IMG/VR virus record: IMGVR_UViG_3300023179_000089
Coordinates: 8,563-72,562 of that record
DNA length: 64,000 nt
From: a virus
Direction: 5' to 3' (one strand)
Below are positions 2,753-57,694 of this stretch, in pieces. The number at the start of each line of letters is the position of its first letter. The first letter of the stretch is position 1. Position numbers and translations under genes: made by a program. The notes under the pieces were generated by a model. The model did not search any database. It worked only from the letters and a program-made list of their open reading frames with translations, and was not told where the DNA came from.

Positions 2753-2770
2753 TCATCTAGTATTACTCGT

Positions 2771-2796
2771 AAAAAGCCTCATTCAGAGGCTTTTCT
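2771..2796 (+). terminator. intrinsic terminator
   Basis: AAAAGCCTC-ATTCA-GAGGCTTTT. Confidence 0.7.
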
Positions 2797-2805
2797 ACTG
2801 TTAAA

Positions 2806-2813
2806 ATATTTAT
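2806..2813 (+). promoter_or_regulatory. putative late promoter ATATTTAT
   Basis: Same octamer shortly upstream of starts at 5654, 32009, 32379, 39377, 46846, 53355, 57711, 59698, 63587, several of them virion genes. Confidence 0.5.
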
Positions 2814-2854
2814 ATCAAAGGTTTCGTACCATTTAACGTATAATTGTTGTATGT

Positions 2855-4522
2855 ATGAATTCCTTCGATCCAAAAATTTCAGATCTTAACCAAAAAATTT
2901 CAGATCTTAACCAAAATATGTTAATACAACATGATTTAGATCATATACAAGACCTCAAATACATTCAATCGCTAAATCAAGTTTTAGTAGAGCAATCGCG
3001 CAATAATTTATTTTTTCAAGGAAAAGTTTCAGAAGGAGCAAAAGTTTTAACCAAACAAGTTGCTAATATTGTCAATACCGACAGATGTTCTTTTTGGTTA
3101 TTTAACTTAGATAGAACGTCGATAAAATGCGAACAATTGTATATTAAAGCTGACAACGAATGGTATCAAGGCTTTGAGTTGTACAAAAAAGATTATGAAC
3201 CGTATTTTAATGCATTAAATGAAAATCCAATCATAGTAGCTGATATTGTAGAAACGCATTACGCCACGTCTTGTTTTACAGAATCATATCTTAATTTGTA
3301 TGGAATTAAATCAATGCTTGACGTTCCAATTTTCTATCAAGCAAATTTAATTGGCGTTATTTGTGTAGAAAGTTTGACATATAGAAAGTGGAGCAGCTTT
3401 GAAATTGACTTTTTACAAATTTTATCTTCGTTTTTTTCATTTGCATATTCAGTTAAAGAACAAACTAAAGAATGGAAATATGGATTTTTTGATCAGGTTA
3501 AAAAAATAAATGAATTTGAAAAATTTGCAGATGAGTCGACAATTATTACCAAAGCAGATGCCAATGGTAAAATTACTTACGTTAACCGAAAGTTTACGGA
3601 AGTTTCAGAATATGAACTAGACGAAGTAGTTGGAAAAGATCATAACATTGTTAATTCCGGAATACATCCAAAAGAGCTATGGACTGATATGTATAAAACA
3701 GTTATAAAAGAAAGAAAAATTTGGAATTCAATCATTACTAATAAAACAAAAAGTGGTAAGTTGTATTATGTAGATACGTTTATCAAAGCTGAATTTGAAA
3801 ATGAACAATTAACTGGGTTTATTTCCATGCGCCAAGACGTAACTAAAATTTACGAAACGTTAAATGCTATTGATGAAAAGAATGTATATTTAGAACACGC
3901 AGCTAAAATACTTCGTCATGATATGCATTCCGGAATAAATACATACATTCCTAGAGGGTTTTCTTCTTTAGAGCGAAGACTGACTCCTGAGGTAATAGAA
4001 CAACTCAAAATAGAGTCTCCGTTAAAAATGATTCGAGAAGGATTGAAGCATACACAAAAAGTTTATAAAGGTGTGTATGAGTTTACTAATTTAGTGAAAC
4101 CAGATTCTAAATTAACTAAAATAAATGTTGATTTAAAAGAAATTTTAACAAGTTATTTACGCTCTACTTCATACTCAAGCCAAGTAATAATAGATACACT
4201 CGGCCGTGCGGATGTAAATGAATCATTATTTTGTACTGCCGTTGATAATTTAATTCGAAATGGTTTGAAATATAATGATTCTGAAACTAAATTTGTTCGT
4301 ATATTTATAGATGAAGATGTACTCTGTATACAAGACAACGGTCGAGGTATGACACAAATGGAATTTGAGAAGTTATCTCAGCCGTATGTAAGAAAAGAAA
4401 ATCAAAAAGAAACGGGATCAGGATTAGGATTAAATATTTGCATCGCAATTTTAAAAGAGCATGGATTTTCTATATCCTGTGAACGTCTTAATAATGGAAC
4501 TAAAATAAAAATAAAAATTTAA
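2855..4522 (+). CDS. GAF-PAS sensor histidine kinase
   Basis: GAF (SMLDVPIF..LIGVICVE); PAS (GKITYVNRKF..GKDHNIVNSGIHP..NKTKSGKLYYV); H-box LRHDMH, N-box DNLIRNGLKY, G1 DNGRG, G2 GSGLGL. Confidence 0.92.
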   Translation: MNSFDPKISDLNQKISDLNQNMLIQHDLDHIQDLKYIQSLNQVLVEQSRNNLFFQGKVSEGAKVLTKQVANIVNTDRCSFWLFNLDRTSIKCEQLYIKADNEWYQGFELYKKDYEPYFNALNENPIIVADIVETHYATSCFTESYLNLYGIKSMLDVPIFYQANLIGVICVESLTYRKWSSFEIDFLQILSSFFSFAYSVKEQTKEWKYGFFDQVKKINEFEKFADESTIITKADANGKITYVNRKFTEVSEYELDEVVGKDHNIVNSGIHPKELWTDMYKTVIKERKIWNSIITNKTKSGKLYYVDTFIKAEFENEQLTGFISMRQDVTKIYETLNAIDEKNVYLEHAAKILRHDMHSGINTYIPRGFSSLERRLTPEVIEQLKIESPLKMIREGLKHTQKVYKGVYEFTNLVKPDSKLTKINVDLKEILTSYLRSTSYSSQVIIDTLGRADVNESLFCTAVDNLIRNGLKYNDSETKFVRIFIDEDVLCIQDNGRGMTQMEFEKLSQPYVRKENQKETGSGLGLNICIAILKEHGFSISCERLNNGTKIKIKI

Positions 4523-4534
4523 AAAAAAACAAAA

Positions 4535-4972
4535 ATGATAAACTCGCTTATGTTAGTAGACGATGAAGATTTATTTCATCTAGTGTTTGAAGATGCATGC
4601 TCACTTTTAGATATCAGCTTATCGCTGAAATCGCTAAATAGTGCAGACGAAGCTGAAAAGTTATTTAAAAAATGGTTTCATGAAGGGGATACTAAGCATA
4701 GACCAGAATGCGTGTTTGTCGACTTAAATATCATTGGGTCATCTTTTGATGGTATTGAATTGATAAGAAAAATTAATTTTGAGTATGGCAATCATGTAAT
4801 TATCGGAATAATTTCTTCATCGAATGAACCGGCAGAACAAACTAAAGCTTTACAAGCCGGGGCGCAGTTTTGGATTATAAAATCAGATGACATTGAACCA
4901 AGACTTGAAGATTTCAAAAAAGACTATGAAAATTACAAAAATAGAACAGCGCCATTTAAAGTTTATAAATAA
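4535..4972 (+). CDS. single-domain response regulator (REC)
   Basis: LVDDED acidic pocket, FVDLN phospho-Asp, ISSS, WIIK; no output domain. Confidence 0.9.
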   Translation: MINSLMLVDDEDLFHLVFEDACSLLDISLSLKSLNSADEAEKLFKKWFHEGDTKHRPECVFVDLNIIGSSFDGIELIRKINFEYGNHVIIGIISSSNEPAEQTKALQAGAQFWIIKSDDIEPRLEDFKKDYENYKNRTAPFKVYK

Positions 4973-5652
4973 TGTTACGAATACATGATAAATTAAAAAA
5001 AGAGTTAATCGCTTTACTCGATGAAAAAAATATTGCTTTAGAAGGTAATATTGTAAAAATGATCGATGCAGAGGATGACAAAGACTTTCAAGATTATATT
5101 GCAATTTGTTTAGAAAAGGATCGAGAATCTAGAAAAAAGCGTCTTGATATAACAAGACAGGTGCAAATTCAAAATAAAGAGCTAACAGCTCTTAACGAGC
5201 AAAACACCAAAATAATGCAGGAGTTGCAGCAAACTCTTGAAGATATGGAAACTTCAAAAACTCATATCGAATTACAAAACAGAGAGCTTATTGCGTGGAA
5301 GCAAGACAACGAGCGAATGTCAATAGAATTGAGAGATGAAATGATAAAGTCTGAAACTGCGAGAATAGAGGCTGAAAATGCTAAAAAAGCAGCAGAATCT
5401 GACTTAGATCTACTTCAAAAGAAAACTCAAACTGAATTAATTGGTAAAATAGTTACGATTGCTCTTTATGTAATAATCGGGGTTGGAATTTCTACGACCT
5501 TAATGTATGTATTTTCCATGATAACAAATAAAGATACTCAAATGATAGGATCTACATGGTCTAATATGTTTGGAATACTATTAACAAACGCATTTAGTAT
5601 TATAGGAACAATAATGGGTGTTAAATATGCATCTGAAAAAAAGGAAGAGTAG
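4972..5652 (+). CDS. coiled-coil protein with two C-terminal TM helices
   Basis: Stop/start overlap with REC gene; long heptad region, 2 TM, charged tail. Confidence 0.75.
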   Translation: MLRIHDKLKKELIALLDEKNIALEGNIVKMIDAEDDKDFQDYIAICLEKDRESRKKRLDITRQVQIQNKELTALNEQNTKIMQELQQTLEDMETSKTHIELQNRELIAWKQDNERMSIELRDEMIKSETARIEAENAKKAAESDLDLLQKKTQTELIGKIVTIALYVIIGVGISTTLMYVFSMITNKDTQMIGSTWSNMFGILLTNAFSIIGTIMGVKYASEKKEE

Positions 5653-5673
5653 AATATTTATATTAAATAAATT

Positions 5674-5958
5674 ATGAGTCAAAAGTACTTTTTCGGGTGG
5701 TCAAACTTAAAATGGGGCATAAAAGAACTTATTAATATTTACAGCAATAAAGACTCGTACTTTTCAAAAAAGCGAATTGAATCAGGTGCTGCATTTGCAA
5801 TAGCTCAGTTTGGAATGATTGCATATTTTATAACTCACTTACATACACTAAACGTTTCCGATGTATTGCTTTGGTCAGCTGCTGAATTTGCAATTGCCGG
5901 ATATGTAGTATCACAAATTCAAAAAGAAAAACAACAAAATGAAACTTCAGGAACTTAA
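5674..5958 (+). CDS. holin-like membrane protein
   Basis: 94 aa, 2 TM after SKKRIESG, charged C-terminus; ATATTTAT upstream. Confidence 0.5.
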   Translation: MSQKYFFGWSNLKWGIKELINIYSNKDSYFSKKRIESGAAFAIAQFGMIAYFITHLHTLNVSDVLLWSAAEFAIAGYVVSQIQKEKQQNETSGT

Positions 5959-6280
5959 ACAAATCATACGAAAAGAGATATTAAGTGTAATAAACGAAGC
6001 TCCTCAAGAATTCGGAGCGTTTCGTCGATTAGTAATTACTACTTCCCAACCTGATGCAGTAAAAAAAGAAATCGATCGTTTTATGAAACAGCCTAACATC
6101 AAAGCTGATTATAAAATGAATAAATTTACTGTAAAAGATGGTGCAAAAGCTGGAGTAATCGTAGTAGATATGGAAGGACAATCTGCTACAGGATTAAGTT
6201 TAAAGATGCAAGATGCTATTAAACGTGTCGACCGTAATGCAGATGTCAAGGAGCGTAAAGAAATTAAATTAACTAAATAA
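5939..6280 (+). CDS. hypothetical protein with QIIRxEI leader
   Basis: MKLQELKQIIRKEILSVINEA. Confidence 0.7.
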   Translation: MKLQELKQIIRKEILSVINEAPQEFGAFRRLVITTSQPDAVKKEIDRFMKQPNIKADYKMNKFTVKDGAKAGVIVVDMEGQSATGLSLKMQDAIKRVDRNADVKERKEIKLTK

Positions 6281-6302
6281 TTCTTACATAATCTATAAAA
6301 AG

Positions 6303-6325
6303 AAGCCCGTAGTACGGGCTTTTTT
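6303..6325 (+). terminator. intrinsic terminator
   Basis: AAGCCCGT-AGT-ACGGGCTTTTTT. Confidence 0.8.
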
Positions 6326-6358: not shown

Positions 6359-7084
6359 ATGAAAGGAAATAAATCTGGAAAAGGCGTATTCGGTCAATAT
6401 AAAGGATACCAACTAATGGAAAGCCAGATTCGTTATGCGATGAGCAATACTACTTCAAATGCAGAAGCGGCAAAATGGCTACATGTATCATTTTCTACAT
6501 GGAAGAAATATGCAAAACGATATATCGACTCGGAAACGGGTAAAACGCTATTTCAGCTACACAAAGAGACTGGGTTTGCACAAAGATTAGTGCTACCAAA
6601 AACAAAATACAGAAGAAAAGCTTCTTCGCCATGGGCATTTCAGCCTCTTCCAATGGCCGACATCTTTGCAAACAAACATTTAAGATACTGTATTAGTCGA
6701 TTCAAAGATCGTTTAGTAAAAGAAGGGTGGAAGGAAGAGCGATGCGAAATATGCGGATATCAAGATCGAAGAGTTTCAGATTATGAAGTACCGCTGCGAA
6801 TTAATTGGCTCGACGATAATAAACGTAATTATTCTTTGGAAAATATTCAGTTAATCTGCCACAACTGTTATTTCATACATGTAGGAAACTTAAACGGCGG
6901 TAAATCAAAACAATTTAAAATTGACGAAGTTACCGGTGAAGTAGTACCTGCAGTTCCAGATCGAAAAACAATACGAGACCAAACTGTACCTCTCGGTCCT
7001 TATTTCAAACCTAGAACTTATGGTCAGCCTCTGCCGGAGTCTCTGGTGAAGAATCTAAAGTCAGATCCGAACCAAGATCATTAA
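6359..7084 (+). CDS. HTH plus degenerate HNH/Zn-finger protein
   Basis: AEAAKWLHVSFSTWKKYA HTH; CEICG...NYSLENIQLICHNCY; catalytic His not evident. Confidence 0.6.
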   Translation: MKGNKSGKGVFGQYKGYQLMESQIRYAMSNTTSNAEAAKWLHVSFSTWKKYAKRYIDSETGKTLFQLHKETGFAQRLVLPKTKYRRKASSPWAFQPLPMADIFANKHLRYCISRFKDRLVKEGWKEERCEICGYQDRRVSDYEVPLRINWLDDNKRNYSLENIQLICHNCYFIHVGNLNGGKSKQFKIDEVTGEVVPAVPDRKTIRDQTVPLGPYFKPRTYGQPLPESLVKNLKSDPNQDH

Positions 7085-30727: not shown

Positions 30728-32005
30728 ATGAACAAACTAGATAAAGATTATTTAGCACTATGTCAAGACATTCTTGATAATGGTACTAAAAAAGAAACAA
30801 GAAATGGTGACACCATATCTGTATTCGGTAGACAGATAAGACATTCTATGAAAGATGGCTTTCCATTGCTTACAACCAAGAAAATTCATTTCAAATCAGT
30901 AGTAACTGAGTTGCTTTGGTTTTTACAAGGTAGAACTGATTTAAAATGGTTGTTAGAACAAGGTAATACTATTTGGGTGGGTGACGCATATAAGAATTGG
31001 TGTAAACAATTTGAAGTTGACCCAAACAATTTTGATGGAGAGGAGATTGCTAAAGGTCATAATGACCAATGCTGGGGATATCCTATACTGGACCATGTTA
31101 AACCTACATCAAAGGAATATAAGAGAGGACAGATAAATGCTTATTTAGAAGGTAAAGCAGAAAAACCATTTTTTTACTTAACACAAGAAGAATTCATCAA
31201 CAAAATCAAACTAGATGATGAGTTTGCTAAGAAGTGGGGGTCACTCGGAAAAATTTATGGGGCGCAGTGGAGAAGTTGGACAAACTATACTGGTAATGAA
31301 ATTGCTGAAGGTACTTATGAAATGACTAATGAACCGATAGACCAAATCCAAAACCTAATCAACGACCTTAAAACAAATCCTGATTCTCGCAGACTTATCG
31401 TGAATAGCTGGAATGTAGGTGAGCTCGACCAAATGGTTCTTCCACCTTGTCATTATGGATTTCAAGTTTATACAAGAGAGTTGAGTTTTGAAGAAAGGTA
31501 TAATAAATGGTTCACCTATAATTACGAAACAGGTATGGAAAGATTTTTTGACCCAAACAACTTACCTGACTTTGACAACGAATATTATGTTCGAACTCCA
31601 ACCAGAGCAATCTCTCTAATGTGGAATCAACGTTCAGTAGATACATTTTTAGGTTTACCGTTTAACATAGCATCTTATGGTTTACTACTTGAAATCATTG
31701 CTAAAGCTGTAAATATGGTTCCTGATGAATTGATTGGTAACTTAGGTGATGTGCATTTATATTCAAATCATATTGAACAAGCAAAGGAACAGATTGGTAG
31801 AACACCTTATGAACTACCTAAACTAAACATCAATACAGAGTTTTGGCCATATGAAGGTGGTGAGTGCGGTGTAGGTCCTTTAGATGCAGTTGCAGTATTT
31901 GAATCATTTAAAGATGAAAACTTTTGTAAGTGTTTGTTGGAAGAAGATATTCAGTTAAGTAATTATGAATCACACCCAACAATTAAAGCCATTTTATCAA
32001 ATTAA
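30728..32005 (+). CDS. thyA: thymidylate synthase with in-frame insertions
   Basis: GFPLLTTKK, ELLWFL, YGAQWR, PDSRR, LPPCH, QRSVD..GLPFNIASY, DVHLYSNH. Confidence 0.97.
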   Translation: MNKLDKDYLALCQDILDNGTKKETRNGDTISVFGRQIRHSMKDGFPLLTTKKIHFKSVVTELLWFLQGRTDLKWLLEQGNTIWVGDAYKNWCKQFEVDPNNFDGEEIAKGHNDQCWGYPILDHVKPTSKEYKRGQINAYLEGKAEKPFFYLTQEEFINKIKLDDEFAKKWGSLGKIYGAQWRSWTNYTGNEIAEGTYEMTNEPIDQIQNLINDLKTNPDSRRLIVNSWNVGELDQMVLPPCHYGFQVYTRELSFEERYNKWFTYNYETGMERFFDPNNLPDFDNEYYVRTPTRAISLMWNQRSVDTFLGLPFNIASYGLLLEIIAKAVNMVPDELIGNLGDVHLYSNHIEQAKEQIGRTPYELPKLNINTEFWPYEGGECGVGPLDAVAVFESFKDENFCKCLLEEDIQLSNYESHPTIKAILSN

Positions 32006-32032
32006 TCGATATTTATTAATAAAAGCATAAAC

Positions 32033-32341: not shown

Positions 32342-32402
32342 GGAAAATAATAATTAAAGCACCTTTATCAAATTAATGATATTTATATTAAAAGTATAAA
32401 CC

Positions 32403-53377: not shown

Positions 53378-56300
53378 ATGTTATCCGTATATACTAATCA
53401 ACAAGACCTTTTAAGGACATCAGTACCTATACCGACAACGCGGTATCAAACTGTTGATAAAGAACTATTCGATAAAAGACAATTTTCCGTAACGCTTAAA
53501 GACACGCCAGTTAAACCAAAGTTGGAATTTCATGTATATTCCAATGACGGCGTTTATTTAACAGGCGATCACGGTGCGTTATTTTCCATAGAAAAAAACA
53601 ATACATCGACTAATACCGAAGCGTATGAATATTTAGCGGTAAATTCTCGAGATGTATTTGCTAGATTAGGAATAAGTAGAGGTCAATATCGAGTTGTATA
53701 TAACTTTTTTGATAATTTAATTGGCTCGTTTGAAGGCGAAAAATTATTTATAAAAGAAATATCTCCTTCTCGCCGAGAATTGCGTTTACAGCTTTCAAAC
53801 AATGACGGCATTACTTTACGTAACCAATATCAAAGTTTTAAAGATCGGTGGGATGAAACTCGTAAAAATGATTTATTTGATTCGTTTGTATTAAACTTTG
53901 GGTTTAATGAAACATTTCAAATTGTAAATCTTCGATTTGAAGAGCAGGAATATTTAGAAATTATAGTAAAGCTGTATCAACCTTTGCCGGCCCGGTTCGG
54001 AGAAAGAGTAAAGCTATGGATTTCTGAAGAAATAATTTCTCCGATTGTCGAAGTTATATCAATCGTACCAAAAGAAGTTTCCGAGGCTTATAATCGTTTA
54101 TCCGGTCCAAATTTTGATTTAGATGAGTTCGAAGGATTTTCAACTGCTACTAGTTATAAGTCTTGGAATGATTTACTCGCTGCAAATATTCAGACATCAC
54201 AGCAAATTATAGACAGTCAATTTTCAGGCTCACTTTCAGGGTTGAAATTAAATATAAGTTATCGTATATTTGATAATTTTGTGCATTACAGTTCAGCAGT
54301 TGAGCGAGTAAAGAATTTCAAATACAAACTTGAAGTAATTGAAAATTACACAAACCAAATTAATAATGTAGCTGTTATTCCAGGCGGAGCGATAATTCAA
54401 ACAAATTTAGCTGATTTATACAATAAACGAAATAATATAGTAAGTAGTTTTGATGATTTTGAAAAATATTTATTTTTCGAATCGACAGGAAGTCAGTTAT
54501 ACACTCACGTCGACGAAACTGCAAATTCTATAATTACCGGTTCTGGAATTATCAATCCATGGCCAAAGACAACTCCGGTTTCTGCTACATGGCAAACAGC
54601 ATTTTCGTTATGGAGTACAATGACATCGCAATGGTCCATTGCTAGTAATCCTGACCCATACGGATATTTTTCTATTCAAGAACTTACTACGTCGGCTACT
54701 GCAGAAGCATATTATGCTGATTTACTTGAAAAAGCAGAGTTATACGATACGCTGAATATACATAAATTACAAAATACAGTTCCAATGCACTTGCAGGGCT
54801 TGAGTGACTCTGACGAGTTTTTACTGTTCGTGCATATGCTTGGTCAACATTTTGATATTTTATGGACTTACATAAAAGCGCTTTCTACCATACATACTCG
54901 AGAAGAGCATCCAAAAGATGGTATGCCTAGCGATTTGCTGTACAACGTAGCTAAATCTTTAGGATTTCAGTTATTAAATGGCAAATCTACTTCAGATTTA
55001 TGGAGGTATGCTTTAGGAGTAGACGCTAATGGAACTGCATTGCAAACCAATGTCAATGGAATTTCGTCAATTTCTGATTCAGATGCTACAAAAGAAGTTT
55101 GGAGAAGAATAGTAAACAACCTTCCATACATTTTAAAATCAAAAGGAACGTCTAGAGCTATTAAAGCATTGGTTACATGTTTTGGAATTCCAACTTCTAT
55201 TTTAACTATAAAAGAGTATGGAGGACCTTCGACATTTACCGACAATGACCACTATCCAGAATACGTGCATGACACGTATCGTTATGCGTGGTTATCAACA
55301 ACAGGAAGCATTCAAATACCAATTACTAGGTATCGTAACTCACTGAATACTTTAGTATTTCCTGATTCTTTAGAGTTTCGGTTTAAAACTGACGCTAACT
55401 TTACTTACAGCACTGGTACGCAATATAATATTTTATCAGGTTCTGGAATTAGTCTGTATTTAACTAAAGATTCTGCAGATGACAATCAAGGTACTGTAAC
55501 TTTTGTCGTTAATAATACTTCTGGAAGTATTGCAGATTTAGAAATTTTTGATCATTCTTGGCAACATGTAGTAATTTCAAAAGTTGCAAATGTAACTGCT
55601 AGTTTACAAATTGCAAAATCGCTGTACAGTAAAACAATATATTTACAATCGGCATCTTTTGTAACTGGGTCTGGAGTTTCCAATCCATTACTAACTAATA
55701 CAATTACATTCGCAACCGGATCAAATAAATTATTTGGACACTTTCAAGAAATTCGTTTATGGTCTGGATCGCTTAATGACAATACAATTCGCGAGCATGC
55801 TGCGTCTCCAAATACATACACTATTAATGTAGATCGTACAGCAATTACGACAGGCGATGAAGGCGATGCTCCTTATGAGCAATTGCTGCAACGTTTTTCG
55901 CTAGCAAACACGCAAATAGATGTTAGTGCTTCAAAATTTGTACAGCCGTCGATACATCCAAATCAAAAGATTAATACAGGTTATATAGTATTTCAAAACT
56001 ATGCAGCTAGCTCATCAATTGAATTTGAAGGATTTGAAGAAACATACTATACCCCTTCCCCTTCGCTTGGAGGTGCAAGTTTGTATACGAATAAAGTACG
56101 AATTGAATCATCCAGTTTACGACCCGGTACTCGATTAAATATCGATTCCAGAGTGGAGCGATCTTCATTTGATAGATATTCCATTGACTCAAACCGTTTA
56201 GGAGTATATTTTTCACCCCAAACTGCAATCAATGAAGATATTTTCAATCAATTAGGATATTTTGAAATAGATGATTATATTGGAAATCCTGGAGATTTAT

Positions 56301-57694
56301 ATAAAGATTACTATTCAGATTTAACAAATTTTGCAATTAAGTATTGGAAAAAATATGATAATCGAAACGATTTTGAGGCATATTTTCGAGCTTTGGAAAT
56401 TTACGATTTCACACTTTTCAAATACATTAAACGAGTTCTTCCTCAACGAGTAAACGGAATCATAGGTTTAGTAGTTGAACCGAACGTGTTAGAGCGTAGC
56501 AAGGTTAAATTACTAAACAAGCCAATTGTAGAAGATTTGTCGTATAGTGCATTAATTACTGCACCTGAAACAGTAATTCCTAGCGCCGAGTTTCACTCTA
56601 TTGAAGGAACGATAGAAAATAATATAGCACAGCCTTCAGGCGAAGTGCAAATCAATGAAGGAATAATTGAGTATGAAGTCGACGTAAATAAATTACCATC
56701 AACATACATACAACATAGATATATAGGAAAATACAAAGTAACAGAAACCGGTTCATATGAACCAATACAAACAATTGTATTAAATTCAACACCTTCATTT
56801 CATACTACGATACAAAATACAACAAATTTAACTGATCAATTATATGGAACTGGGTCTTTTAATTTAGGATCATATTATGCACAAAACGTGCCTTCATTTT
56901 CGGCAGTAACCGAGTCGTTAATTGGACTCAATTTAGATTTAAGATCTATACGAAATACATTTCCCCCTACAACGGATAGATCGCTAGTATTTGTGTCGTA
57001 TAATTTTAGTACGCCGTCGACTTTAGAATTAGCTAGTTCAGGTAGTACAATTGGTGGGGATACAAGAACAGATTCCTTTGACGTTGAAATTCCATATAAT
57101 TCATTAGACGACTCAAATTACATTTTAAATGAAAATAATTCATATAAAATTTTATTTGAGTGGACCGCTAGCTTTACGGTATCAAATCTGCACTCAAATG
57201 ATTATAGTTTATCTACTTTCTGCAGTAATCGATTCGGGCAAAATAGTGTATACTTTTTTTCAGAGACGCTAGCAGCTGCCCCGACGACTACATATGTATA
57301 TTCAGGATCTGTTAGCAGAATAGTATATCCTACATCGACTTCATTTACATTTGGAATAGCCTTTAATGCTTTGTATGACGATCAAGGAGTGGGCACTCCG
57401 GCGTATAATCCTGTTAATATAAAATACAAAAATTTTAAAATTCAGAAAAATGATGTCGCATCTGATATACAAGATTCTCATTTCAGTGATAACGGATTTT
57501 CTGGATTTTTAAATTTAAGATATTTCGGAAGTAAATTGACAGGTCCGGGAATTAACATTGACACGCCAAACACTATCGACGGAGGTCCAGTTGTTAAAAT
57601 AACAACAGTCAATCCAAATCAGTTAGTATTTGCGAGCAATCAAATTTCAACTATTGATCAATCTGCTACCGGAACTCAGCGAAGATCTATTTAA
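53378..57694 (+). CDS. large baseplate/virion protein with LamG-like region
   Basis: NNLPYILKSKGT..GIP..IKEYGG (gp7/tail-I-like), GHFQEIRLW; 1438 aa. Confidence 0.7.
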   Translation: MLSVYTNQQDLLRTSVPIPTTRYQTVDKELFDKRQFSVTLKDTPVKPKLEFHVYSNDGVYLTGDHGALFSIEKNNTSTNTEAYEYLAVNSRDVFARLGISRGQYRVVYNFFDNLIGSFEGEKLFIKEISPSRRELRLQLSNNDGITLRNQYQSFKDRWDETRKNDLFDSFVLNFGFNETFQIVNLRFEEQEYLEIIVKLYQPLPARFGERVKLWISEEIISPIVEVISIVPKEVSEAYNRLSGPNFDLDEFEGFSTATSYKSWNDLLAANIQTSQQIIDSQFSGSLSGLKLNISYRIFDNFVHYSSAVERVKNFKYKLEVIENYTNQINNVAVIPGGAIIQTNLADLYNKRNNIVSSFDDFEKYLFFESTGSQLYTHVDETANSIITGSGIINPWPKTTPVSATWQTAFSLWSTMTSQWSIASNPDPYGYFSIQELTTSATAEAYYADLLEKAELYDTLNIHKLQNTVPMHLQGLSDSDEFLLFVHMLGQHFDILWTYIKALSTIHTREEHPKDGMPSDLLYNVAKSLGFQLLNGKSTSDLWRYALGVDANGTALQTNVNGISSISDSDATKEVWRRIVNNLPYILKSKGTSRAIKALVTCFGIPTSILTIKEYGGPSTFTDNDHYPEYVHDTYRYAWLSTTGSIQIPITRYRNSLNTLVFPDSLEFRFKTDANFTYSTGTQYNILSGSGISLYLTKDSADDNQGTVTFVVNNTSGSIADLEIFDHSWQHVVISKVANVTASLQIAKSLYSKTIYLQSASFVTGSGVSNPLLTNTITFATGSNKLFGHFQEIRLWSGSLNDNTIREHAASPNTYTINVDRTAITTGDEGDAPYEQLLQRFSLANTQIDVSASKFVQPSIHPNQKINTGYIVFQNYAASSSIEFEGFEETYYTPSPSLGGASLYTNKVRIESSSLRPGTRLNIDSRVERSSFDRYSIDSNRLGVYFSPQTAINEDIFNQLGYFEIDDYIGNPGDLYKDYYSDLTNFAIKYWKKYDNRNDFEAYFRALEIYDFTLFKYIKRVLPQRVNGIIGLVVEPNVLERSKVKLLNKPIVEDLSYSALITAPETVIPSAEFHSIEGTIENNIAQPSGEVQINEGIIEYEVDVNKLPSTYIQHRYIGKYKVTETGSYEPIQTIVLNSTPSFHTTIQNTTNLTDQLYGTGSFNLGSYYAQNVPSFSAVTESLIGLNLDLRSIRNTFPPTTDRSLVFVSYNFSTPSTLELASSGSTIGGDTRTDSFDVEIPYNSLDDSNYILNENNSYKILFEWTASFTVSNLHSNDYSLSTFCSNRFGQNSVYFFSETLAAAPTTTYVYSGSVSRIVYPTSTSFTFGIAFNALYDDQGVGTPAYNPVNIKYKNFKIQKNDVASDIQDSHFSDNGFSGFLNLRYFGSKLTGPGINIDTPNTIDGGPVVKITTVNPNQLVFASNQISTIDQSATGTQRRSI

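Follow-up and report, generated by a model that had tools for sequence, protein, structure and literature searches.

A phage-encoded kinase, receiver and coiled-coil membrane protein module with a possible role in lysis control

The timing of phage lysis is usually attributed to holin accumulation plus a few antiholin tricks. In T4 lysis inhibition (holin T, antiholin RI, and RIII), a sensed signal acts post-translationally on a membrane lysis protein through direct binding of periplasmic and cytoplasmic domains, and no kinase or receiver is used. Class II holins have two transmembrane (TM) segments, an N-in/C-in orientation and a charged C-terminal tail. In the CheA-CheY and DivJ/PleC-DivK systems, a kinase is paired with a stand-alone receiver that has the full set of phospho-acceptor residues. 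Here we describe a locus on a 64-kb stretch of DNA, referred to below as the window, which comprises bases 8563-72562 of the 72.5-kb IMG/VR virus record IMGVR_UViG_3300023179_000089 (CheckV completeness 41%); its source is an uncultured freshwater T4-like phage of the lytic type. The locus encodes, in this order, a soluble sensor histidine kinase, a stand-alone receiver and a membrane protein with a coiled coil and two TM segments (CC2TM). Judging from sequence comparisons, we hold with moderate confidence that this trio forms a phosphorelay through which the phage controls an effector resembling a holin or antiholin, with a membrane protein rather than a transcription factor as its output.

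The locus resembles T4 lysis inhibition in that it lies in a T4-like phage and in that a sensed signal would act post-translationally on a membrane lysis protein. It differs in that the proposed input is cytoplasmic (GAF/PAS), with a periplasmic input added in those relatives that carry a second kinase, and PHROG and NCBIfam searches gave no sequence relationship between the trio and the T4 lysis-inhibition proteins. Likewise, it shares with CheA-CheY and DivJ/PleC-DivK a kinase beside a fully equipped stand-alone receiver, whereas here the pair is encoded by a T4-like phage, and what it is proposed to act on is a new coiled-coil membrane protein, tail-anchored and translationally coupled to the receiver. 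In Firmicutes, LytSR/LytST control the holin-like Cid/Lrg proteins (PMC3507848, in excerpt). As far as that excerpt goes, the two cases have in common a two-component system linked to holin- or antiholin-like membrane proteins; LytSR/LytST are bacterial and act on transcription via a DNA-binding regulator, whereas the system described here is viral and its receiver has no DNA-binding domain. An excerpt of a jumbo-phage survey (PMC7824862) records only a divergent receiver, never together with histidine kinases, and an excerpt of a preprint (bioRxiv 10.64898/2026.05.02.722434) reports two-component genes in phages of ammonia oxidisers. Full-text literature searches returned no paper on a phage two-component system tied to lysis.

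A total of 80 related viral loci came from scanning viral contigs with two queries, the kinase and the membrane protein. Kinase, receiver and CC2TM stand in the same order in 74 of these loci, and the remaining six are cut by contig ends. The contigs with relatives of the trio range from 28% to 66% GC, and the receiver stop overlaps the CC2TM start by 1 or 4 nucleotides (nt) at 72 of 75 loci, redundant copies and the window locus included. A tblastn search of 50,697 GenBank phage records matched neither the receiver nor CC2TM, and a DNA search of GenBank phages with the window returned a single 116-nt match. Among ~185,000 species genomes the trio was found in only four, all of them contigs of metagenome-assembled genomes (MAGs) with 38-66% GC, and the flanks of both MAG contigs that were scanned (L083 and L084) carry phage genes. 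The synteny comparison suggested in the original prediction of this unit thereby identifies a phage-conserved module. A recent bacterial import lacking conservation in phages is ruled out, because the gene order is kept in 74 of the 80 related viral loci and the presence in species genomes comes down to four MAG contigs.

An extra gene is inserted between kinase and receiver in 10 of 75 loci, encoding either a patatin-like phospholipase (PF01734, E 5e-20 to 5e-26; for example L005:7545-8537 and L016:7547-8521) or a second kinase (L048:2061-3449, L069:1992-3368 and L032:7886-9199). The second kinase shares the catalytic core of the first and adds a signal peptide, a single TM segment and an outside domain of ~200 amino acids (aa), which had no family match. 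The presence of this kinase points to two inputs feeding one receiver in these relatives. Signal peptides encoded by phages of this clade resemble those of Bacteroidota.

The window kinase has no hydrophobic segment and is therefore taken to be soluble. Its H-box YLEHAAKILRHDMHSGINTY, N box, G1 and G2 boxes are invariant across 26 aligned kinases, and the same 26 sequences share the boxes DNLIRNGLKYND, DNGRG and G.GLGLNI of an intact ATP-binding domain. The original prediction had described a soluble GAF-PAS-HisKA-HATPase kinase. The soluble character and the GAF, PAS and HATPase_c domains were all recovered; the HisKA domain was not detected by Pfam at E <= 0.1, although the invariant H-box is present, and this unrecognised dimerization and histidine phosphotransfer (DHp) region is a further difference from the kinases of CheA-CheY and DivJ/PleC-DivK. 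The likeness of the PAS domain to Aer and NifL was borne out: the residue pattern quoted for it is present, the best PDB matches to residues 223-349 are 3ewk (E 1.1e-17), 8dik (E 2.1e-14; named as an aerotaxis receptor) and 2gj3 (E 5.4e-8; named as a nitrogen fixation regulatory protein), and the kinase segment GKDHNIVNSG.H lines up with GQDHRIVNSGYH of 3ewk. The top NCBIfam match is the NifL model, with an E-value of 7.7e-16 and a score far below the equivalog cut-off of that model. We take 3ewk, 8dik and 2gj3 to be the PAS domains of MmoS, Aer and NifL, all presumably redox sensors that bind flavin adenine dinucleotide (FAD). Flavin or redox sensing by the kinase PAS is therefore probable on the strength of these matches, although identity to the three proteins is only moderate and in some relatives a second PAS type stands in place of this PAS or in addition to it. 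Sensor architectures vary among the relatives (PAS only, PAS-PAS, GAF-PAS or GAF-PAS-PAS), and most GAF-bearing relatives have two N-terminal TM segments, which the window kinase lacks.

The receiver had been described as having no output domain, and this holds: the Response_reg match spans residues 6-117, and beyond it there is only a conserved C-terminal tail of ~28 aa. Across 36 sequences, residues D9, D10, D63, S94-96 and K116 do not vary, and the alignment columns average 84% identity. Among relatives the receiver is 66-88% identical, compared with 40-67% for the kinase and 45-69% for CC2TM. Searches with the receiver gave 3859 clusters (90% identity) at E <= 1e-5, and the best 120 of these matched at 81-100% identity on contigs of up to 382 kb; one source labels receiver relatives 'CheY-like chemotaxis protein'. 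Since the receiver has no DNA-binding domain, its output is expected to pass through protein-protein contact.

CC2TM was predicted to be a translationally coupled protein with a coiled coil and two TM segments, in agreement with the overlap of its start with the receiver stop and with two C-terminal TM segments at residues 154-185 and 199-217. An alignment of 33 sequences divides it into an N-terminal domain (N-domain) of ~60-75 aa with the conserved features LEGN, F39, Y42 and RKKRLEITKQVQ.QN, a coiled coil of varying length (8 of the 33 lack ~34 residues of it), a conserved juxtamembrane stretch, a variable TM1, a short loop and TM2. The second TM segment is polar and near-invariant (W..N..GILLTN.FSI.GTIMG.KY) on contigs of 28-66% GC, and it is followed by the charged tail KYASEKKEE. 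The AlphaFold2 model (predicted local distance difference test, pLDDT, 86.5) consists of a short helix, a loop, a single helix from residue 37 to residue 184 that enters TM1, a hairpin turn and TM2. The layout of class II holins, with two TM segments, N-in/C-in topology and a charged C-terminal tail, is found in CC2TM, where it occupies the C-terminal ~75 residues, and relatives of CC2TM adjoin endolysin genes. Unlike class II holins, CC2TM is extended by 150 aa of cytoplasmic, regulatory sequence, and no profile of a holin family matches it. A CC2TM profile searched against 1.8 billion representatives returned 271 clusters, and the nearest Atlas clusters are 96-100% viral and hypothetical.

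Natural fusions place the parts of CC2TM in new contexts. A GAF-CC2TM fusion, represented by one 90%-identity cluster with seven members on ~10 contigs, joins the kinase GAF (56% identity to residues 34-201) to CC2TM residues 60-224 (52% identity) and has the appearance of a gene from which all sequence between sensor and coiled coil was deleted in frame; its predicted structure has a mean pLDDT of 46, too low to use. In two single-member clusters, PAS or PAS-PAS is fused to the coiled-coil/2-TM part. No kinase core or receiver lies within 5 kb of the GAF-CC2TM fusion at three viral loci, and neither Response_reg nor HATPase_c gave a match in the two CheckV-complete fusion genomes (160 kb with terminal repeats, and 181 kb), while a control record was positive for both. 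Because these genomes have neither kinase nor receiver, the coiled-coil/2-TM part would be an output that sensors can drive directly. Conversely, in five clusters (318-349 aa, up to eight members each, contigs of up to 100 kb) the N-domain and coiled coil are fused to a HisKA-HATPase core, so that the N-domain appears to behave as an input module also able to drive a kinase core. Since both PAS-CC2TM and N-domain-kinase fusions exist, both ends of CC2TM seem to behave as signalling modules. Another candidate fusion, P0074, which joins the N-domain, coiled coil and TM1 to a FecCD permease, was set aside as a probable assembly chimera, as it occurs on a single 1.5-kb contig only.

We next consider the genes around CC2TM. 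All loci were searched with the proteins of the L096 region and with the Phage_lysozyme protein encoded directly upstream of the L010 kinase (PF00959, E 1.4e-41); the 175 loci with CC2TM reduce to 110 that are non-redundant by CC2TM DNA. Of these 110 loci, 61 have an endolysin-type gene at a distance of up to 2 kb and 23 have one within 300 nt; when two small-TM families are counted as well, the number rises to 70. At 67 loci both flanks extend for at least 2 kb; 39 of these show an endolysin-type gene within that distance, and 44 show a lysis-like gene of any kind. By our own estimate, which assumes one or two endolysin genes per ~170-kb genome, chance proximity would be ~4-8%. Three unrelated endolysin-type families are involved, namely GH19/phrog_181, Phage_lysozyme PF00959 (GH24) and a phrog_3000-like protein, and at least five arrangements were counted in all: GH19 directly downstream with gaps of ~15-27 nt; CC2TM followed by a gene of the type at 5674 of the window and then GH19 (five non-redundant loci); GH19 divergent and just upstream of the kinase; GH19 or GH24 upstream on the same strand; and a 2-TM holin-like gene convergent just downstream. 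Such a swap among unrelated endolysin families would be hard to explain without a functional tie. At L096 the genes after the GAF-CC2TM fusion encode two small TM proteins, then a GH19 endolysin (phrog_181, E 2e-61) and then a nuclease, and at L097 an endolysin lies 440 nt upstream of the fusion. The small TM proteins of L096 and L028 have no Pfam, PHROG or NCBIfam family. What is new here is this endolysin proximity, the GAF fusion inside a lysis cassette and the N-domain-kinase fusions.

From these comparisons we infer flavin or redox sensing, phosphotransfer, contact between receiver and N-domain, and a role in lysis, which could be connected as follows. The cytoplasmic kinase would read a host-state signal through its PAS and GAF domains, autophosphorylate on His355 and pass the phosphate to receiver Asp63. 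The start/stop overlap would fix the ratio of receiver to CC2TM, and the receiver would act on the CC2TM N-domain. The coiled coil would then carry the signal to the C-terminal 2-TM hairpin with its class II holin-like build, and the hairpin might either make the lethal membrane lesion itself or control a holin, so that the time of lysis is set. A more specific version, which we put forward only tentatively, is that CC2TM is a holin or antiholin gated by the phosphorylated receiver, and that the phosphorelay, not holin accumulation alone, times lysis in a large uncultured aquatic phage clade. Under this gated-holin version the input would be cytoplasmic redox or energy state, joined by envelope or superinfection signals where a second kinase faces outwards, and in some lineages the circuit would have become simpler through direct fusion of a sensor to the pore module.

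Several observations weigh against a holin- or antiholin-like effector under phosphorelay control. CC2TM has no Pfam, PHROG or NCBIfam family, so that none of the known holin families matches it, and its 226 aa exceed the typical holin size. No searched-for lysis-like gene is nearby in 23 of the 67 fully flanked loci, and the phrog_3000-like protein was counted as an endolysin via a weak partial match only. Because the loci are related, the 61 of 110 are not 61 independent events, and the independent number is nearer that of the arrangements. The 72.5-kb record of the window contains no GH19-type endolysin, and the GH24 and phrog_3000-like queries had no match within the window, the only DNA of the record searched with them. 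The suggestion that the unit sets lysis timing is backed by gene neighbourhood and by sensor-effector fusions in lysis cassettes of relatives, and not by a GH19 endolysin in the record itself. Two near-identical loci of 27.7% GC (L132:3150-3806 and L137:4824-5480) encode a full CC2TM including the N-domain; neither receiver nor kinase was found in the 177-kb L137 record (74% complete), and the 74.5-kb L132 record (14% complete), searched with the receiver protein only, gave no receiver. The N-domain-kinase fusion P0128 found only N-domain or generic kinase matches in viral and metagenome contigs, and only generic kinase matches in GenBank phages. Finally, the predicted complex of the receiver with CC2TM residues 1-110, both supplied as alignments, scored 0.28 against a mark of 0.32 and is evidence neither way.

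We weighed three other explanations. The system could be directed at the host, with the receiver serving as a CheY-like effector or phosphate sink that acts on host proteins, for instance those of the motility apparatus, kinases or adaptors of proteolysis; CC2TM would then be a mere scaffold or anchor, and the closeness of endolysin genes would reflect clustering of late or accessory genes. A conserved host target fits a receiver that is far more conserved than its two neighbours, and the chemotaxis name given to its relatives, the self-anchoring of most related kinases by two N-terminal TM segments and the fully flanked loci without a nearby lysis-like gene agree with it. We nevertheless regard this explanation as unlikely, since a scaffold role leaves unexplained the GAF- and PAS-CC2TM fusions in genomes without kinase and receiver, and neither the near-invariance of the polar TM2 across such a range of GC nor the repeated linkage to three unrelated endolysin families follows from it. 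Alternatively, CC2TM might control a membrane process other than lysis, tuned to the state of the host, such as superinfection exclusion, a block of DNA injection, shutdown of host metabolism through an ion leak or depolarisation, or phospholipase control. The patatin-like phospholipase between kinase and receiver in several loci would suit this alternative, a second kinase with an outside-facing sensor domain would suit envelope sensing, and the missing holin family match would be no surprise. Endolysin genes and small 2-TM holin-like genes are recurrent neighbours, however, and the L096 fusion heads a cassette of TM protein, TM protein, endolysin and nuclease, and we find this alternative rather improbable.

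That the trio is a 'moron' of host origin, carried along passively and serving no function specific to the phage, strikes us as very improbable. Two-component genes are typical of bacteria, and the GenBank phages are without the receiver and CC2TM. This view is already contradicted by the synteny in 74 of the 80 loci, and it sits poorly with the number of receiver clusters and the high identity of the best 120 on large contigs, with the viral make-up of the Atlas clusters nearest to CC2TM, with the restriction to four species genomes, all MAG contigs, where both scanned flanks carry phage genes, and with the invariance of the catalytic residues. Our preferred reading is therefore still that of a phosphorelay acting on a holin- or antiholin-like membrane effector.

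Table 1. Features of the kinase-receiver-CC2TM locus and its surroundings, in window coordinates.
Feature	Position (nt)	Strand	Size or residues	Evidence or remarks
Upstream hairpin, terminator-like	2769-2798	+		A-run and U-run at its sides; -13.8 kcal/mol, z -5.77
ATATTTAT, promoter-like motif	2806-2813	+		42 nt before kinase start
Soluble sensor histidine kinase	2855-4522	+	555 aa	Pfam domains, conserved boxes, no TM segment
Kinase GAF	3044-3445	+	residues 64-197	Pfam E 3.6e-16
Kinase FAD-type PAS	3545-3847	+	residues 231-331	PAS_9, 28.1 bits (cut-off 27)
Kinase H-box His355	3917-3919	+	residue 355	invariant LRHDMHSGIN
Kinase HATPase_c	4226-4516	+	residues 458-554	Pfam E 2.5e-13
Stand-alone receiver	4535-4972	+	145 aa	Pfam Response_reg (PF00072), 35.1 bits (cut-off 30.2)
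CC2TM membrane protein, candidate effector	4972-5652	+	226 aa	start overlaps receiver stop by 1 nt
ATATTTAT, second copy	5654-5661	+		13 nt before 5674 start
5674 protein	5674-5958	+	94 aa	two weakly hydrophobic helices, charged C-terminus
5939 protein, soluble, specific to this phage	5939-6280	+	113 aa	no hydrophobic segment
Downstream hairpin, terminator-like	6299-6325	+		followed by T-run; -15.6 kcal/mol, z -4.58

The coordinates of the trio and of the features around it are collected in Table 1. The unit was originally drawn with five genes. All five are real open reading frames (ORFs) on the + strand, but the core consists of three, the kinase, the receiver and CC2TM. The gene at 5674, called holin-like, is real and stands beside CC2TM in the window; its protein is only weakly hydrophobic, with two hydrophobic stretches below a Kyte-Doolittle mean of 1.6 and thus under the TM threshold, and it has no holin or other family in Pfam, PHROGs or NCBIfam. 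A homologue lies between CC2TM and the GH19 endolysin in five non-redundant relatives (L120, L122, L128, L131 and L135), whereas in many others it is ~3.3-3.9 kb away on the opposite strand. The 5674 protein is therefore a possible lysis accessory or holin-like protein. The leader ascribed to the 5939 protein was not found, as this protein has no hydrophobic segment; it has no homologue in 197 loci and no Pfam, PHROG or NCBIfam family, and it is probably not part of the module.

Both hairpins taken for flanking terminators are stable, and in neither case did any of 200 shuffles match the stability of the native sequence. A simple terminator scan reported the downstream hairpin only, which it assigned to the - strand. 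The motif ATATTTAT was found ahead of the kinase as claimed. It occurs 17 times in the window, compared with 17.5 expected by chance, but the + strand carries 16 of them, 12 of which fall between genes in a window where non-coding DNA makes up only ~10%. All but one of the 12 intergenic + strand copies sit 12-26 nt before ORF starts, those of baseplate/tail-region genes included, and the kinase copy is at the greater distance given in Table 1. Because of this bias in strand, intergenic position and placement before ORFs, the distribution of ATATTTAT is non-random, and a phage promoter element is a plausible explanation. The trio thus stands behind the same motif as structural genes, which we count in favour of a phage phosphorelay acting on a lysis-type effector. 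A T4 late promoter on the + strand was considered for ATATTTAT and rejected, TATAAATA occurring only four times in the window. At 32009-32016 and 32379-32386 the motif is embedded in almost the same 30 nt of sequence, and an ORF with the N-terminus MKKSELQQI starts 17 nt after either copy, which suggests a tandem duplicated small gene. N-termini of this type resemble the starts of the 5939 protein and of small ORFs at L096.

The window as a whole has ~31% GC and carries T4-like genes for baseplate wedge, DNA ligase and thymidylate synthase; every ORF of 150 aa or more, 37 in total, lies on the + strand. Near-identical DNA was found in 19 runs from 11 further studies of lake, freshwater, reservoir, estuary and aquatic metagenomes; no RNA dataset was listed among the sequencing runs matching the stretch. 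An HNH homing-endonuclease-like gene (6359-7084; phrog_14736, E 3e-11) directly follows the downstream terminator, and a 33%-identical copy is present in L096 at ~722-1261. Just upstream of the locus, a 268-aa protein (1034-1840) has TM segments at both its N- and C-terminus and a long coiled coil in between, with no Pfam, PHROG or NCBIfam family. The thymidylate synthase ORF (30728-32005, 425 aa) may contain an insertion, because its residues 1-422 cover only PHROG profile positions 29-305. A 1438-aa ORF in the baseplate/tail region (53378-57694) had no PHROG match at E <= 1e-5.

The modular parts of CC2TM (N-domain, coiled coil and 2-TM hairpin), together with the natural sensor fusions, make a compact system in which to study the transfer of cytoplasmic signals into a membrane hairpin, and they could serve as a switchable lysis device. 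If the proposed phosphorelay is real, a virus-encoded relay onto a membrane effector would be a new decision layer in lytic phages. As the module is common, with thousands of receiver clusters and many aquatic runs, it could shape burst timing in natural waters.

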